From: a phage
NCBI GenBank assembly: GCA_012474735.1
Contig: GCA_012474735.1_4085.1
Reading direction: 5' to 3' (one strand)
Length of the DNA stretch: 64,000 bases
This document shows, piece after piece, positions 50,780 to 54,830 of the stretch. A program made the position numbers and the translations under genes. Positions within the stretch are counted from its first letter, which is position 1. Each line of letters opens with the position of its first letter. Under the pieces are notes generated by a model. The model searched no databases, was not told the DNA's origin, and saw only the letters and a program-made list of their open reading frames with translations.

Positions 50780-50971
50780 TTACTTCCTATATATAAGCAT
50801 TAAGATATAGTAGTACTGATTATACTGTACATTCTCTTTAATATTATAAGGGTCTATAGCAATCTCGGTACATCTGTTAAATGCATATCTATTAAATGCC
50901 AGTGGAATTATAGATCTAATCCATACTTGTTCATTTTCTTTTAGTTTACTTATATAGAAGTTTTTATACAT
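50780..50971 (-). CDS. F3 paralog (~60-aa family), unknown function
   Basis: ORF; MYKNFY...LMLIYRK. Confidence 0.55.
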   Translation of the reverse strand: MYKNFYISKLKENEQVWIRSIIPLAFNRYAFNRCTEIAIDPYNIKENVQYNQYYYILMLIYRK

Positions 50972-50986
50972 AGTATTCTCTATTAA

Positions 50987-51169
50987 TTAATATGATAGTA
51001 CTAGTGTTAGTACTGAGCACAATTGTTCTTTGTAGTTCTTAGGGTATATAGAATCTTTTATGCACTCATTGAAGTGCCATAGGTATAATCTTGGGTCGCA
51101 TTCTTTATATATTCTTACGGGGACGAATGTTAGTTTTCGTATATAGAATTCTTTATGTTCTTTATTCAT
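50987..51169 (-). CDS. F3 paralog, unknown function
   Basis: ORF; MNKEHKEFY...LTLVLSY. Confidence 0.55.
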   Translation of the reverse strand: MNKEHKEFYIRKLTFVPVRIYKECDPRLYLWHFNECIKDSIYPKNYKEQLCSVLTLVLSY

Positions 51170-51170
51170 A

Positions 51171-51359
51171 TTAGTACCTGAATATAAGTAGGATTATGTT
51201 ATAGTACTGGTTAGTACTGCAATGATTCTCTATACATCGATTAACAGTTATGGAATAGCTATATCTGGCGTAAGCATTATCCAGCGGGATTTTACATTGA
51301 GCACTTAGAGAAAGTACAGTAGGTAGTGTATTCAAATAGAAGTCTTTGTAATTATTCAT
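51171..51359 (-). CDS. F3 paralog, unknown function
   Basis: ORF; MNNYKDFY...ILLIFRY. Confidence 0.55.
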   Translation of the reverse strand: MNNYKDFYLNTLPTVLSLSAQCKIPLDNAYARYSYSITVNRCIENHCSTNQYYNIILLIFRY

Positions 51360-51561
51360 ACAGGAATAGTATACCTATGATACCTGAGTACAGGTTAGTA
51401 CTGTTACCATCTTCGTTTGCGTTTAAAGTCATTTGAATACAATTATTGTAGCATACTCTGCCGAAAAATGTATTAGTACTTAAAGGTGGAGTATTCCTTA
51501 GAAACATTTGTTCTGAGGGGCTTATGTATTTGGAGTAGAATTCTTTATGTTCTTTATTCAT
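51352..51561 (-). CDS. F3 paralog, unknown function
   Basis: ORF; MNKEHKEFY...IGILFLYE. Confidence 0.55.
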   Translation of the reverse strand: MNKEHKEFYSKYISPSEQMFLRNTPPLSTNTFFGRVCYNNCIQMTLNANEDGNSTNLYSGIIGILFLYE

Positions 51562-51566
51562 ATTAG

Positions 51567-51752
51567 TTAGTGTCTGTATATAAGTAATAGTAAGAATACG
51601 TACTGCACATCTTCATCTTTAGTATTGAGTACTGTACGTATTGCGTCATGGAACAAGAATATAGTACTTGGGTCATGAAAATTTAAAGGGGTTCTGGGTA
51701 CGGCATGTTTGTAGTTCCCTTTAACAAATTGTGTGTAGTATTCTCTATGCAT
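51567..51752 (-). CDS. F3 paralog, unknown function
   Basis: ORF; MHREYY...LLLLIYRH. Confidence 0.55.
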   Translation of the reverse strand: MHREYYTQFVKGNYKHAVPRTPLNFHDPSTIFLFHDAIRTVLNTKDEDVQYVFLLLLIYRH

Positions 51753-51753
51753 A

Positions 51754-51939
51754 TTAGTACCTATATATTAGGGCGAGAATGTAGTACAATTCATATGGAA
51801 TGTAATTTGGGGTGATCGCACACTGTGTATGGTAAATGAATTGTTCGGTATTTTTCTTATCCTTGATATCTATTGGGATTTGTGGTATAAGCATTTGGGA
51901 GTTTAGATCGAGGTGGCTTAAGTAGAATTCTTTATGCAT
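51754..51939 (-). CDS. F3 paralog, unknown function
   Basis: ORF; MHKEFY...LALIYRY. Confidence 0.55.
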   Translation of the reverse strand: MHKEFYLSHLDLNSQMLIPQIPIDIKDKKNTEQFIYHTQCAITPNYIPYELYYILALIYRY

Positions 51940-51948
51940 ATTGTTCTC

Positions 51949-52137
51949 TTAGAATACGAAAGCTAGGTACAGGGTATGATACAGTACTCGATGATAGCTG
52001 TCAAAATCTAGTATACATGCTTTAGTGCACATAGTAAAGTACACTTTCTCGTTTTGTGCATTGATACCGCGAGGTTTATCTAATAGATTAGTTCTGAGGT
52101 ACATTGGGAAATATTTTGTGTAGTATTCTTTATGCAT
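51949..52137 (-). CDS. F3 paralog, unknown function
   Basis: start at MHKEYYTKYF (internal ATG of ORF-track ORF); ...LYLAFVF. Confidence 0.55.
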   Translation of the reverse strand: MHKEYYTKYFPMYLRTNLLDKPRGINAQNEKVYFTMCTKACILDFDSYHRVLYHTLYLAFVF

Positions 52138-52138
52138 A

Positions 52139-52718: not shown

Positions 52719-53382
52719 AGTTTGTAATATACGTAATGAGGTGATGCATTTTCTTATTAGTACTGATAATTTCCTGTACATGTTTTGTCAGATTGTACGC
52801 GTTTTTATAGAGTGCTGGATTATCGATTACAGTACTGTACATGAATAGTTCTTCCTCGGATAATTCTTTGCCTTGTAATTCTTTGAGGAATTGTAGTACT
52901 GTATCAGTTTCTTCTGTACGTTGTGCTTGCCAGAAGTGCATATTCTCGTGTACTTTTTCTGCATCAGTAGAGTATATGCCACCCATTTGGAATTGTGCTG
53001 TATTGACATCGTGGGAGGTGTTACAATTCCCGAAGAAGTATGTATTCCCGAAGTATAGCATTAAAGTGCACGGGGTATTATCCAACTGCATATTGATGAT
53101 GAAGGATGCGTTCTTTAGTACCTTTGTGCTCGTATTAGTACTCAATACTTTTAAATCAGTATTATAGATATTCATATAATGAACAGCTATATTATTTTTC
53201 TTCATGTACAATTCAAGGTTCTTTGATACGTTAACTCCATTTGTACTGGATTTTTCCTTTTTATTTCGTTTCTTTAGTACATTCGGGTGATACGTATATG
53301 CAGATGTAACTGATTCTGCCTGAATACTATTGAGGTACTTAAAGTGCTTAAGGTATTGTTTGCTGTGTGCATTAAGTTTCAT
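52711..53382 (-). CDS. F1-motif protein (223 aa) embedded in the F3 array
   Basis: ORF; RBS aaggaaaccaaATG; C-terminal EEELFMYSTV resembles the F1 motif. Confidence 0.55.
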   Translation of the reverse strand: MKLNAHSKQYLKHFKYLNSIQAESVTSAYTYHPNVLKKRNKKEKSSTNGVNVSKNLELYMKKNNIAVHYMNIYNTDLKVLSTNTSTKVLKNASFIINMQLDNTPCTLMLYFGNTYFFGNCNTSHDVNTAQFQMGGIYSTDAEKVHENMHFWQAQRTEETDTVLQFLKELQGKELSEEELFMYSTVIDNPALYKNAYNLTKHVQEIISTNKKMHHLITYITNYV

Positions 53383-53392
53383 TTGGTTTCCT

Positions 53393-53572
53393 TTATATAG
53401 ATGCCAGGGCGAGGATTTCCCTGTAGGGATTATCTTGTGTTAGTACAGCATAAATGCAGCTATTGAGATTAATATTTTTAGTACTTTTTGTTCCTAGTTT
53501 GTAGTACTTCACGAAGGTGTCGTACATGAAACGGTCTTTTATGGTTATACGTTCTCTATAGAATTGTTGCAT
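53393..53572 (-). CDS. F3 paralog (59 aa), not in ORF track
   Basis: MQQFYRER...; RBS aaggaatactATG; stop overlaps downstream start. Confidence 0.45.
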   Translation of the reverse strand: MQQFYRERITIKDRFMYDTFVKYYKLGTKSTKNINLNSCIYAVLTQDNPYREILALASI

Positions 53573-53580
53573 AGTATTCC

Positions 53581-53763
53581 TTAAATAGCGATTAGTTTCA
53601 TTACTTCTCTGTATGTGTACTTTTCGTTTTGTGCATCTCTTGTGACGACATATAGGAAGGTGTGTTTATCTTTTTTGTTCCCGCAATTGTAGAAAATATT
53701 GAACTTATTGAAGTTGAATCTTTCGGCGTGTTGTAGTTTAGTTAAATAGAATTCTATGTTCAT
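53581..53763 (-). CDS. F3 paralog, unknown function
   Basis: ORF; MNIEFY...MKLIAI. Confidence 0.55.
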   Translation of the reverse strand: MNIEFYLTKLQHAERFNFNKFNIFYNCGNKKDKHTFLYVVTRDAQNEKYTYREVMKLIAI

Positions 53764-53771
53764 TTTCTTCC

Positions 53772-53957
53772 TTACATTTCAATAAGTTTCAGTACTGCTC
53801 GGTACGTGTACTTAGTTGTCAGTGCTTCTTTAATAGAAATACAGAAGTAATGTTGTTTGTCTCTTATACTGCCGCGTTTGTAGTACCACACATGGGAGTT
53901 GTGACTGTACTTGTCTCTGTCGGATAGTTGTTGGTAGTAGTAGCTTATATGATTCAT
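53772..53957 (-). CDS. F3 paralog, unknown function
   Basis: ORF; MNHISYYY...LKLIEM. Confidence 0.55.
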   Translation of the reverse strand: MNHISYYYQQLSDRDKYSHNSHVWYYKRGSIRDKQHYFCISIKEALTTKYTYRAVLKLIEM

Positions 53958-54004
53958 TGTAATTAGCCTTACTATGTTAAAGTACTCGGTCCCTGGTGTA
54001 CCTT

Positions 54005-54199
54005 TTAGAACTTAAAGATGAGGTTCAGGATAGAGCGGTACTTAGTTGCAGGGAACGTATGTTCTATTGCATAACGTGTCACCATCCTGAAATCGTAATT
54101 ATAATACAGATTATCCTTTCTCATAGGTGGTGCTAAAGAGAATGATAGCTGTTCTTGTTTGGGTAGTTTACTACAATAGAAATCTTTATGATTATTCAT
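54005..54199 (-). CDS. F3 paralog, unknown function
   Basis: ORF; MNNHKDFY...LNLIFKF. Confidence 0.55.
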   Translation of the reverse strand: MNNHKDFYCSKLPKQEQLSFSLAPPMRKDNLYYNYDFRMVTRYAIEHTFPATKYRSILNLIFKF

Positions 54200-54401
54200 A
54201 GAAATATATTAGTCCTATTAAACCTGAGTACATAATATTTTTGTTATTACATTCGATTGCTTCTATAGTACTACGTATACAATTATTAAAGCAATCTCTG
54301 GCGTGTGGTGTATCTATACTTAAAGGTGATACACTCCTTAGAAACAATTGTTCTTCGTTGCTAAGGTATTTGGTGTAGAATTCTTTATGTTCAGTATTCA
54401 T
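54192..54401 (-). CDS. F3 paralog, unknown function
   Basis: ORF; MNTEHKEFY...IGLIYFYE; close relative of 51352..51561. Confidence 0.55.
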   Translation of the reverse strand: MNTEHKEFYTKYLSNEEQLFLRSVSPLSIDTPHARDCFNNCIRSTIEAIECNNKNIMYSGLIGLIYFYE

Positions 54402-54402
54402 A

Positions 54403-54606
54403 TTAGTACTCGATTAAAAGGGCAAGGATATAATAGTATTGCATACTTTCTGCCCCTTGTAAAGCATTTCTTATGATATTACTCCTGTACGAGTTCAGGA
54501 GTTTAGGACAACGTTTGTAGTGTATAAAAGTATTTTGTGTATACAGTAGGCTTTCTCGTAGACCTTTTGTTGGTAGTGCATCGATGTAGTACTGTTCAAT
54601 GTTCAT
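54403..54606 (-). CDS. F3 paralog, unknown function
   Basis: ORF; MNIEQYY...LALLIEY. Confidence 0.55.
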   Translation of the reverse strand: MNIEQYYIDALPTKGLRESLLYTQNTFIHYKRCPKLLNSYRSNIIRNALQGAESMQYYYILALLIEY

Positions 54607-54830
54607 ATAGATAGCAGTACTAAGATTTTTGATAATTGTTTATTGCTATCCCCGCAGATGTTGCTGTGTAAAATACTCACAATGAGGGTATCAATTGCAT
54701 TGTTCATCATAAGGGTGCATCCTGGACTATTATAATTTTTTAGCTCAATTAGCCACGAACTATCCGCGAGAAATTCCCCGTACTCTAGTTCATTTAGAGT
54801 ATTGAGGTAGTACTTAAGAGTATTTGTCAT
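54603..54830 (-). CDS. F3-like paralog, first gene of array
   Basis: ORF; MTNTLKYY...; RBS aaggagaactacacATG; promoter 54856-54884. Confidence 0.55.
   Translation of the reverse strand: MTNTLKYYLNTLNELEYGEFLADSSWLIELKNYNSPGCTLMMNNAIDTLIVSILHSNICGDSNKQLSKILVLLSI

Follow-up and report, generated by a model that had tools for sequence, protein, structure and literature searches.

What kind of genes make up a run of 17 very small, tightly packed reading frames at the end of the unique genome region of a large Escherichia phage, and how does such a run gain and lose members? The window, i.e. the whole stretch of 64,000 nucleotides analysed here, is 99.7% identical to Escherichia phage PBECO4 (Asteriusvirus, about 348 kb), and roughly a hundred of its genes belong to four tandem families beside the terminal repeat (F1, about 45 genes; F2, 29; F3, 17; RCC1, 10). 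The F3 array occupies 50780-54830 on the minus strand and comprises 17 ORFs of 59-75 aa each plus one 223-aa gene, with the coordinates and strand that an earlier note had given. Our best reading, to which we give about an even chance, is that F3 is an Asteriusvirus-specific multigene family of ~60-aa soluble four-helix proteins which would act as early, non-virion accessories and are encoded in a recombining operon. The genes, in order of transcription, are as follows.

54603..54830, minus strand: gene 17, 75 aa, the operon's first gene; class C, promoter-proximal
54403..54606, minus strand: gene 16, 67 aa, divergent F3 class A (BLAST supercluster A), with a 4-nt overlap with gene 17
54192..54401, minus strand: gene 15, 69 aa, F3 class A
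54005..54199, minus strand: gene 14, 64 aa, F3 class A, with an 8-nt overlap with gene 15
53772-53957, minus strand: gene 13, 61 aa, F3 class B
53581-53763, minus strand: gene 12, 60 aa, F3 class B
53393-53572, minus strand: gene 11, 59 aa, F3 class B
52711..53382, minus strand: embedded 223-aa gene, PHROG 29152
50780..52718, minus strand: F3 class A block, genes 10 to 1
52518-52718, minus strand: gene 10, 66 aa, class A
52323-52508, minus strand: gene 9, 61 aa, class A
52139-52321, minus strand: gene 8, 60 aa, class A, the member modelled with AF2
51949-52137, minus strand: gene 7, 62 aa, class A
51754-51939, minus strand: gene 6, 61 aa, class A
51567-51752, minus strand: gene 5, 61 aa, class A
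51352-51561, minus strand: gene 4, 69 aa, class A
51171-51359, minus strand: gene 3, 62 aa, class A
50987-51169, minus strand: gene 2, 60 aa, class A
50780-50971, minus strand: gene 1, 63 aa, class A

From gene 1 upwards the spacings are 15, 1, -8, 5, 1, 9, 1, 1, 9, -8, 10, 8, 8, 47, -8, 1 and -4 nt, i.e. -8 to +15 nt with a single 47-nt gap, in agreement with the description of genes mostly 1-10 nt apart or overlapping. The PBECO4 record annotates just six CDS in this region, so that most F3 genes have no matching CDS, whilst nearly all are annotated in phage 121Q and several later records (e.g. E9.1, ELP22, WPEC5).

The array had been described as a 17-gene family, and at the level of alignment and HMM comparison this stands for 16 genes, which demonstrably form one homologous family (classes A and B) with similarity far beyond chance, but not for gene 17. 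The PHROG 11711 HMM matched 12 of the 17 genes end to end (best E 5.3e-28); genes 11-13, 16 and 17 were not matched by this profile, nor individually by any PHROG. Class A and class B (genes 11-13) aligned over their full length with hhalign (probability 88.5%, E 2.8e-6, 55 columns), the reversed-sequence control giving E 0.17. Gene 17 (54603-54830) aligned with classes A and B over 14-16 terminal columns only (E 0.049 and 0.0024, probability 1-12%; control for the 16-column class A alignment with E 0.049, E 0.44), and its membership of the F3 family is unproven. PHROG 11711 is thus an existing database cluster for the family, although it misses the class B genes as well as genes 16 and 17 and comes without function, structure or a description of the array.

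The proposed N-terminal motif was recovered as [HYN]-K-[ED]-[FY]-Y in about 12 of the 17 genes, in some behind an MNxE extension, with Tyr6 invariant. The aromatic/hydrophobic tail holds in so far as a hydrophobic helix is conserved there, though only five genes end exactly in '...R-Y'; other proteins end in ...RK, ...RH, ...LSY, ...LYE, ...FYE, ...AFVF, ...AFQY, ...LASI, ...LIAI, ...LIEM, ...IFKF, ...LIEY or ...LLSI, and those of class B in ...Y-T-Y-R-E-V-L-K-L-I-x-I. The 'Cys/Asn-rich centres' were overstated: Cys makes up 2.4% of residues (one semi-conserved Cys) and Asn 8%, the striking residue being Tyr at 11%. Conserved columns (E4, Y/F5, Y6, L10, Q/R15, T/I37, I/L41, Y/L50, I/V53, L54, L56, I57 and Y60, with majority residues P23, F33 and C36) are the hydrophobic/aromatic positions of helices 1, 3 and 4, and the non-core positions are hypervariable among paralogues (pI 4.4-9.6) and conserved inside each orthologue group.

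The AlphaFold (AF2) model of 52139-52321 is a confident four-helix protein (pLDDT 90.5) in which the conserved N- and C-termini form core helices, the tail being helix 4. No transmembrane segment was predicted in any F3 protein (maximum 19-residue Kyte-Doolittle mean -0.26 to 1.18), nor was there a Pfam or structural match to a helix-turn-helix or other DNA-binding domain. Searches for structural or sequence relatives outside Asteriusvirus found none; the family amounts to 32 cluster representatives among 1.84 billion proteins and in tblastn was confined to Escherichia and Salmonella Asteriusvirus-type phages.

Comparison of orthologues from 10 related phages shows that F3 genes are real protein-coding genes under purifying selection, with a pN/pS of 0.34 and a third-position excess (2165 differences vs 1335 and 971); all 17 frames are intact and syntenic across many phages, and the junctions bear SD-like AGG/AAGG/GAG sequences or start-stop overlaps. 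The earlier view of a real coding paralogue array with conserved termini is borne out by these values and by the PHROG and hhalign homology. Paralogues share 17-42% identity and are old rather than recent amplifications. By site, pN/pS was 0.23 in the core and 0.38 on the predicted surface, a surface value that speaks against a rapid arms race still under way among orthologues.

In the DNA, the conserved termini coincide with the stop/Shine-Dalgarno/start junction (e.g. AGG TAC TAA T ATG), and exact repeats of at least 14 nt within the array were found at gene junctions only, all 20 of them starting within a stretch that reaches from 53 nt before a start codon to 13 nt after it. A 392-bp two-gene indel relative to phage 121Q is bounded by the two copies of a 32-nt junction repeat.

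51144..51175, minus strand: right copy of the 32-nt direct repeat ACTAATATGAATAAAGAACATAAAGAATTCTA, spanning the junction into gene 2
51536-51567, minus strand: left copy of the 32-nt direct repeat, spanning the junction into gene 4

Against nine phages, 33 of 40 block breakpoints fell within 40 nt of a start codon (35% expected by position), a count in which breakpoints are partly common by descent, corresponding to about 20 distinct events of which 14-15 are junctional. F3 copy number ranges from 15 to 23 per phage, across 37 orthogroups. Since the sole repeats of this length lie at junctions and whole-gene insertions and deletions between related phages break there, unequal homologous recombination there is shown, by sequence comparison, to be how the array gains and loses whole genes. 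For tandem paralogue clusters, Tsuru and Kobayashi (2008, Mol Biol Evol, PMC2568036) described an evolutionary unit running from the 3' end of a gene through the spacer into the 5' end of its neighbour. As in that description, F3 repeats are confined to termini plus a short spacer and rearrangements break there, so that the variable gene centres would behave as cassettes. Their case is a bacterial chromosomal cluster, whereas F3 is a phage operon for 60-aa proteins, predicted to be cytoplasmic, with spacers of 1-10 nt that would double as translation-coupling junctions.

The embedded 223-aa gene, whose stop shares an 8-nt overlap with the start of gene 10, keeps the same position in all compared phages that retain it intact. 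It had been called an F1-type gene linking the arrays. The ORF and its motif EEELFMYSTV are present (F1 core motif LSEEExFxYSxVxD), but the tests run did not place it in F1: an HMM built from 45 F1 genes did not report it at E values up to 10, PHROG assigns it to a separate group (29152), and its likeness to the F1 consensus in hhalign is limited to 18 columns (E 8.6e-5, probability 60%). A BLASTP match to one F1 gene (15595-16218) had E 0.005, a C-terminal HMM of the 223-aa gene ranked F1 genes first at sub-significant E values (0.001-0.13), and its structure prediction was uninformative (pLDDT 42). As the likeness is confined to that motif, with no full-length similarity, 'linking the arrays' is reduced to a motif-level hint.

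F3 forms the right end of the unique genome region and adjoins the direct terminal repeat. We infer that 264 bp separate the stop codon of gene 1 from the start of that repeat, going by homology to phage fEgEco12, whose genome ends restriction digests have confirmed (PMC13070987). On the other side of the terminal repeat lie the F1 and F2 arrays. The features flanking the array, together with one promoter-like site inside it, are the following.

50496..50516, minus strand: inferred start of the direct terminal repeat (about 50516), with the hairpin GGCAGAGGAAGTCTGCC directly there, from homology to the fEgEco12 genome end
51976..52004, minus strand: internal promoter-like site, TTGACA-17-TATCAT with AGTACTG, inside gene 7
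54856..54884, minus strand: predicted F3 operon promoter, sigma70-type, TTGACA, 17-nt spacer with CAGTACTG, TACTAT
54933..56135, plus strand: first gene of the divergent RCC1-like array, given as context outside F3

Downstream of the predicted operon promoter, a Shine-Dalgarno sequence AAGGAG stands 8 nt ahead of the ATG of the first F3 gene. Nine phages agree throughout in the -35 hexamer, CAGTACTG and the SD, and the -10 reads TACTAT in eight and TACAAT in one. The same architecture recurs in about 20 near-consensus promoters at 31-50 kb, and AGTACT, about 12-fold over-represented, is found in about 20 promoters in the spacer that separates -35 from -10. The number of promoter-like sites in the region was not above shuffled controls (24 vs 28.8), so the case for an early class is built on the particular architecture that these promoters share and on how well it is conserved. 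As had been noted, F3 and the RCC1 array are transcribed away from each other out of an intergenic region of roughly 100 bp, but this does not look like a common control region: the first RCC1 gene (probable start 54933) is preceded by AAGGAGGG, and RCC1 genes carry a repeated upstream motif that differs from the sigma70-type F3 promoter, leaving only the geometry in common. Nor did the suggested co-variation of the two arrays emerge, their copy numbers showing no significant covariation (rho about 0.5, n = 6 phages).

The Rak2-like phage CBB has short hypothetical genes with RpoD-like promoters beside and inside its terminal repeat, a block which its authors suspect to be an early host-takeover region (PMC5259590). 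F3 resembles what is given of this block in being a set of small genes of unassigned function near the terminal repeat with sigma70-type promoters, and differs in that no homologue was found outside Asteriusvirus-type phages and in the AGTACTG spacer element, of which the accessible part of the CBB account makes no mention. The match of the F3 promoter to those of the adjacent block, its conservation in nine phages and the CBB parallel together point to early expression, in which host RNA polymerase would read the operon starting at a sigma70-type promoter that belongs to the phage's own class, and translation would be coupled between successive genes. The list of 62 virion proteins for phAPEC6 includes the RCC1-like gp007, gp009, gp549 and gp551 but, between gp347 and gp549, no F3-type protein (PMC7247149); this suggests non-virion products, a reading against which it counts that virion mass spectrometry easily misses small proteins. 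The proteins would then be accessories built on one scaffold, each perhaps binding a different host or competing-element target in host takeover or counter-defence.

Several other explanations deserve weighing. The paralogues could build a single hetero-oligomer together (a filament, ring or DNA-associated scaffold), made in equal amounts by translational coupling and joined through their conserved N- and C-terminal helices as interfaces, which we regard as rather unlikely. Orphan immunity-gene arrays of polymorphic toxin systems offer an analogue for a second possibility, that F3 proteins are immunity-like antidotes, small helical inhibitors each neutralising a different toxin (of host abortive-infection or toxin-antitoxin systems, bacteriocins or rival phages). 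The small all-helical scaffold, the hypervariable surface on a conserved core, the tandem array and the strain-variable content would suit this idea, which is a special case of our preferred explanation, but neither fold nor sequence matched them to immunity proteins of colicin-type or polymorphic-toxin systems with a toxin gene alongside, and in this specific form we think it unlikely.

It is quite improbable that F3 proteins are small DNA-binding regulators of the super-abundant palindrome (T)CAGTACTG(A), with TCAGTACTGA-containing DNA as putative target. The position of the palindrome in the spacer of early promoters means that such proteins could switch early transcription, and they are small and helical, 10 of 17 with a pI above 8; yet no DNA-binding family was detected, some of the proteins are strongly acidic, with a net charge as low as -7.4, and a single palindrome would not require 16 paralogues with differing surfaces. 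Membrane-active peptides anchored by the hydrophobic, aromatic C-terminus (I/V-L-x-L-I-F/Y) are very improbable, as the hydrophobic run is only about 8-11 residues, the hydropathy maximum does not exceed 1.18 and the tail is helix 4 of a confident helical model; the transmembrane or amphipathic tail suggested earlier is not supported by the same values. That the ORFs are unexpressed, decayed or chance frames in repetitive DNA, as the six CDS of the PBECO4 record might suggest, is scarcely credible: the selection signal effectively refutes it, and the intact syntenic frames, the SD sequences or coupling overlaps, the high AF2 confidence and the annotation of essentially every gene in 121Q, E9.1, ELP22 and WPEC5 all speak against it.

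Returning to the family of four-helix accessories, large eukaryotic DNA viruses carry terminal multigene families, or 'genomic accordions', such as the ASFV MGF and the poxvirus host-range genes near terminal repeats. By analogy, the phage tandem families adjoin a terminal repeat and vary in copy number between isolates; unlike those families, the proteins are unrelated, the phage repeats are direct and not inverted, and F3 paralogues are old. A bolder, tentative proposal, which we hold to be possible rather than probable, is that F3 with F1 and F2 is the phage counterpart of these families, a recombination-driven cassette arsenal in which 37 or more specificities on one orphan four-helix scaffold would each neutralise a different host defence or takeover target, the junctions acting as built-in recombination sites that reshuffle the repertoire. 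In Bacillus phage G, zinc-ribbon genes have undergone a lineage-specific expansion to about 35 (Iyer et al., 2021, PMC7824862). F3 likewise shows a very small protein multiplied into many paralogues within a jumbo phage, but it has no metal-binding Cys/His pattern and only its one semi-conserved Cys, and it differs in fold and in phage lineage.

About 83% of the genes of these 350-kb coliphages are without known function (PMC7247149). For F3, the analysis adds a selected protein family with a confidently predicted fold, a predicted promoter, a fixed place beside the genome end and a demonstrable mechanism of gene gain and loss, shows the reference PBECO4 annotation to be incomplete, and makes what had been a block of 'hypothetical proteins' tractable for deletion and interaction screens. 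Should F3 proteins serve in counter-defence or host takeover, their 37 or more orthogroups would offer a sizeable new supply of small inhibitors, and array content could help explain host-range differences among therapeutic Asteriusvirus candidates.

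Window positions 50700-55000 are 99.7% identical to Escherichia phage PBECO4 (NC_027364.1, 153626-157926), a window position w converting to PBECO4 position w + 102926, and the F3 array, a run of small tandem genes at 50780-54830, corresponds to 153706-157756 of that record. Related F3 arrays were found in 34 Escherichia and Salmonella phage records of Asteriusvirus type. The F3 genes are already in public records and PHROGs. The PBECO4 reference annotates only six CDS across the stretch, and among the 17 small genes (numbered so that gene 17 is promoter-proximal) only those at 50780-50971 and 51949-52137 match a CDS exactly, the remaining annotated small CDS being shortened forms of genes 4, 10 and 13. 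The 121Q record holds 16 small genes and the larger one, all as hypothetical proteins, and together with several newer records annotates essentially all F3 genes. The literature searched contained no description of the F3 array, fold, promoter or recombination behaviour. The surroundings of the array are laid out as follows.

437-23636, minus strand: F1 array, 45 genes of 100-220 aa
23626-30012, minus strand: F2 array, 29 genes of about 70 aa
30-49 kb, minus strand: block of assorted small genes
49101-50779: ORF-poor gap of 1.7 kb between the small-gene block and F3
49311-49292: terminator-like site in the ORF-poor gap
49994-49961: 14-bp hairpin in the ORF-poor gap
50780-54830, minus strand: F3 array
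54885-54932, 58464-58534 and 59684-59754: RCC1 upstream regions carrying the RCC1 motif
beyond F3, plus strand: RCC1-like genes

All 17 small ORFs (59-75 aa) and an embedded 223-aa ORF were recovered exactly where the earlier note had placed them, and the tight spacing it described also held, with junctions from an 8-nt overlap to 15 nt and a single 47-nt gap. PHROG 11711 (unknown function) was matched by 12 of the 17 small genes with E-values down to 5e-28, and none matched Pfam. When ten related phages were pooled, their 202 members fell into 37 orthogroups at 70% identity, and BLAST resolved these into three superclusters, distributed in the window as follows.

Class A: genes 1-10 and 14-16
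Class B: genes 11-13, 53393-53957
Class C: gene 17, 54603-54830

Profile-profile comparison aligned classes A and B over 55 columns (88.5% probability, E 2.8e-6; reversed control E 0.17) and shows the two to be homologous, whereas a relation of class C to either was not demonstrable by this method. The proposed single family of 17 therefore narrows to one family of 16 genes, of which gene 17 is not demonstrably a member. Profile comparisons revealed no relationship of F3 to F1 or to F2, nor of F1 (a single HMM-coherent family of 45 genes) to F2 (PHROG 4148, motif LGTNYQE). Copy number of F3 genes varies from 15 to 23 per phage in an otherwise syntenic order.

The ORFs evolve as coding sequences. 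Orthologue pairs gave a pS of 0.108 and a pN of 0.037 (ratio 0.34), with 1335, 971 and 2165 differences at codon positions 1, 2 and 3 respectively; AGG, AAGG or GAG lies 6-10 nt upstream of the ATG in eleven or twelve genes, and the others begin within the stop region of the preceding gene (ATGA, or 8-nt overlaps). That these ORFs are non-genes is effectively excluded. The pN/pS ratio was 0.23 at family-conserved columns and 0.38 at variable columns, so that the distinct surface of each paralogue is itself conserved. In CMSTMSU, whose record is marked UNVERIFIED_ORG, several F3 copies are truncated or frameshifted and the 223-aa gene has no intact copy; for these reasons the phage was excluded from the selection analysis.

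For the product of 52139-52321, AlphaFold2 with a 30-sequence alignment predicted four helices (residues 2-7, 12-20, 27-42 and 46-58) at a pLDDT of 90.5. In helices 3 and 4 the conserved columns are spaced i, i+3/4, i+7, a pattern that fits a buried core, and nearly all other alignment columns have an entropy above 3 bits. Of the conserved termini described earlier, the N-terminal [HYN]-K-E-[FY]-Y and the hydrophobic C-terminal helix were borne out; Tyr6 is invariant in the alignment, with Leu10, Phe33 and Cys36 as majority residues; the supposedly Cys-rich centre is unremarkable (2.4% Cys), and Tyr makes up 11% of residues. The F3 proteins have pI values from 4.4 to 9.6. None of their 19-residue windows is hydrophobic enough to span a membrane, and a role as membrane peptides is effectively excluded. 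Foldseek of the model against the PDB and BFVD returned only the F3 family itself, and Pfam, NCBIfam, PADLOC and PDB-sequence searches of all members were empty. Searched exhaustively with the family HMM, 1.84 billion representatives yielded 32 proteins, all of about 60 aa but one, a 242-aa protein rejected as a TPR-like low-complexity chance match. By tblastn, F3 is confined to Asteriusvirus-type records and absent from GAP32, RaK2, Munch and CBB relatives. These small helical proteins form a genuine family restricted to one lineage.

The embedded 223-aa gene (PHROG 29152) occupies the same place in all compared phages that keep an intact copy, and is probably translationally coupled to gene 10; in SD-15_S21 it is shortened to 190 aa. 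The gene had been called F1-type, and hhalign does align it with F1 over the 18 columns of a motif, LSEEExFxYSxVxD, at E 8.6e-5 and 60% probability, but the HMM of the F1 array fails to detect it. BLASTP reaches one F1 gene at E 0.005, F1 genes are enriched among the sub-significant matches of its C-terminal HMM, and the predicted structure (pLDDT 42) is unusable. Taken together, the F1-type label is therefore only a hint.

Upstream of gene 17 the intergenic sequence at 54856-54884 contains TTGACA, a 17-nt spacer holding CAGTACTG, TACTAT and then AAGGAG. Nine phages share this predicted sigma70-type promoter, among them A4, the most divergent: the -35 hexamer, CAGTACTG and the Shine-Dalgarno sequence do not vary, and at -10 eight phages have TACTAT and one has TACAAT. 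A second promoter-like site of the same architecture lies within gene 7 (52004-51976), and about 20 near-consensus copies of TTGACA-N8/9-[CT]AGTACTG-TATAAT precede small genes on the minus strand at 31-50 kb (examples of the recurring element are at 50124-50151, 33358-33385, 36215-36242 and 54856-54884). The palindrome AGTACT leads all hexamers of the window in over-representation, together with CAGTAC; it has 262 sites, an excess of about 12-fold relative to base composition, and there are 59 copies of CAGTACTG and 17 of TCAGTACTGA. Because this 12-fold enrichment is window-wide, neither GTAC nor AGTACT was accepted as a signal specific to F3. Sites far outnumber promoters and also fall within genes in all three frames, at a density of 8.1 per kb in non-coding and 3.2 per kb in coding sequence, and lowest in the F2 array (1.25 per kb). 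F3 coding sequences hold 22 sites against 5.1 +/- 2.0 in synonymous shuffles; AGTACT in F3 is selected independently of coding. An unlikely rival reading takes the F3 proteins as regulators that bind this palindrome.

The gene junctions combine several properties. The C-terminal ...R-Y-stop reads AGG TAC TAA T ATG as DNA and places the rare Arg codon AGG 7 nt upstream of the next F3 start, so the tail doubles as ribosome-binding region of the following gene. Exact direct repeats of at least 14 nt form 20 pairs in F3 (up to 32 nt), all starting in the interval from 53 nt before to 13 nt after a start codon, and a 392-bp indel between the window and 121Q, flanked by the 32-nt repeat ACTAATATGAATAAAGAACATAAAGAATTCTA, removes exactly two F3 genes. 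When breakpoints were taken as the ends of collinear blocks (at least 90% identity, window against nine phages), 33 of 40 lay no more than 40 nt from a start codon, positions that make up 35% of the array; after shared events were collapsed, about 14-15 of 20 were junctional. Gain and loss of F3 genes is therefore junction-mediated, and the termini serve at once as core helices, probable translation-coupling junctions and substrates of unequal homologous recombination. The closest described analogue is a bacterial tandem paralogue cluster with a likewise junction-spanning evolutionary unit (PMC2568036).

Upstream of the RCC1-like genes next door another motif recurs, TAAATAT[AG][GA]TATAATGAATAA(A)GGAGG followed by ATGTTACCTTTT, often preceded by the hairpin GCCAGTACACTGTACTGGC, which was seen before two of these genes. 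The control region said to be shared by the two arrays is thus one short region from which both diverge, but with different upstream signals. In phAPEC6 four RCC1-like proteins are virion components, a list from which F3-type proteins are absent (PMC7247149). Given the distinct motifs and the virion data, the two arrays probably belong to different temporal classes. PBECO4 has 10 genes in its RCC1 array and relatives have 9-16, and the suggested covariation of F3 and RCC1 copy number, (17,10), (16,12), (21,12), (22,16), (15,9) and (23,11) in six phages, was not significant (rho about 0.5, with genome size and phylogeny as confounders). Immediately after the RCC1 array, outside the window, five to eight tandem genes, each about 105-125 aa long (PBECO4 171523-173225; gp299-303 in PBECO4, genes 224-232 in 121Q), look like a further paralogue array.

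The F3 array adjoins the terminal repeat. In phage fEgEco12, restriction digests have confirmed direct terminal repeats of 20,993 bp (PMC13070987). The left end of that genome matches the window at about 50516, where the hairpin GGCAGAGGAAGTCTGCC lies, and the end of its repeat at about 30078, so that by homology 30078-50516 would be a direct terminal repeat of roughly 20.4 kb. On these inferred boundaries 264 bp separate the end of F3 from the right repeat, and about 66 bp lie between the left repeat and the start of F2. The gap at 49101-50779 has no convincing ORF, is dense in TCAGTACTGA palindromes and, on the minus strand at 50151-50124, carries a perfect TTGACA-16-TATAAT promoter that no gene follows; the gap could house non-coding RNA or packaging/terminus signals, and an Rfam scan of the whole window, gap included, gave no match. 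GC skew of the coding strand is negative in F3 (-0.12 to -0.18) and positive in all other gene blocks of the window (+0.06 to +0.18), which may reflect an unusual amino-acid composition, with few codons that begin with G, or else an effect of strand or replication; plus-strand skew changes sign near 50 kb, where the genome end is inferred, and not where transcription switches at 54.85 kb.

The organisation of F3 is operon-like. In the related phage CBB, RpoD-like promoters mark short hypothetical genes beside and within the terminal repeat, a block that its authors suspect to be an early host-takeover region (PMC5259590); no Asteriusvirus transcriptome was found in the literature searched. We suggest that the F3 genes would be expressed early and translationally coupled, and that their products may be non-virion accessory proteins in which one scaffold presents many surfaces to different targets, in host takeover or counter-defence. 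Two less likely rival readings are that the paralogues are subunits of a hetero-oligomer or that they are immunity-like antidotes. In kind, F3 belongs with the tandem expansions of small accessory genes that are specific to single lineages of large viruses.
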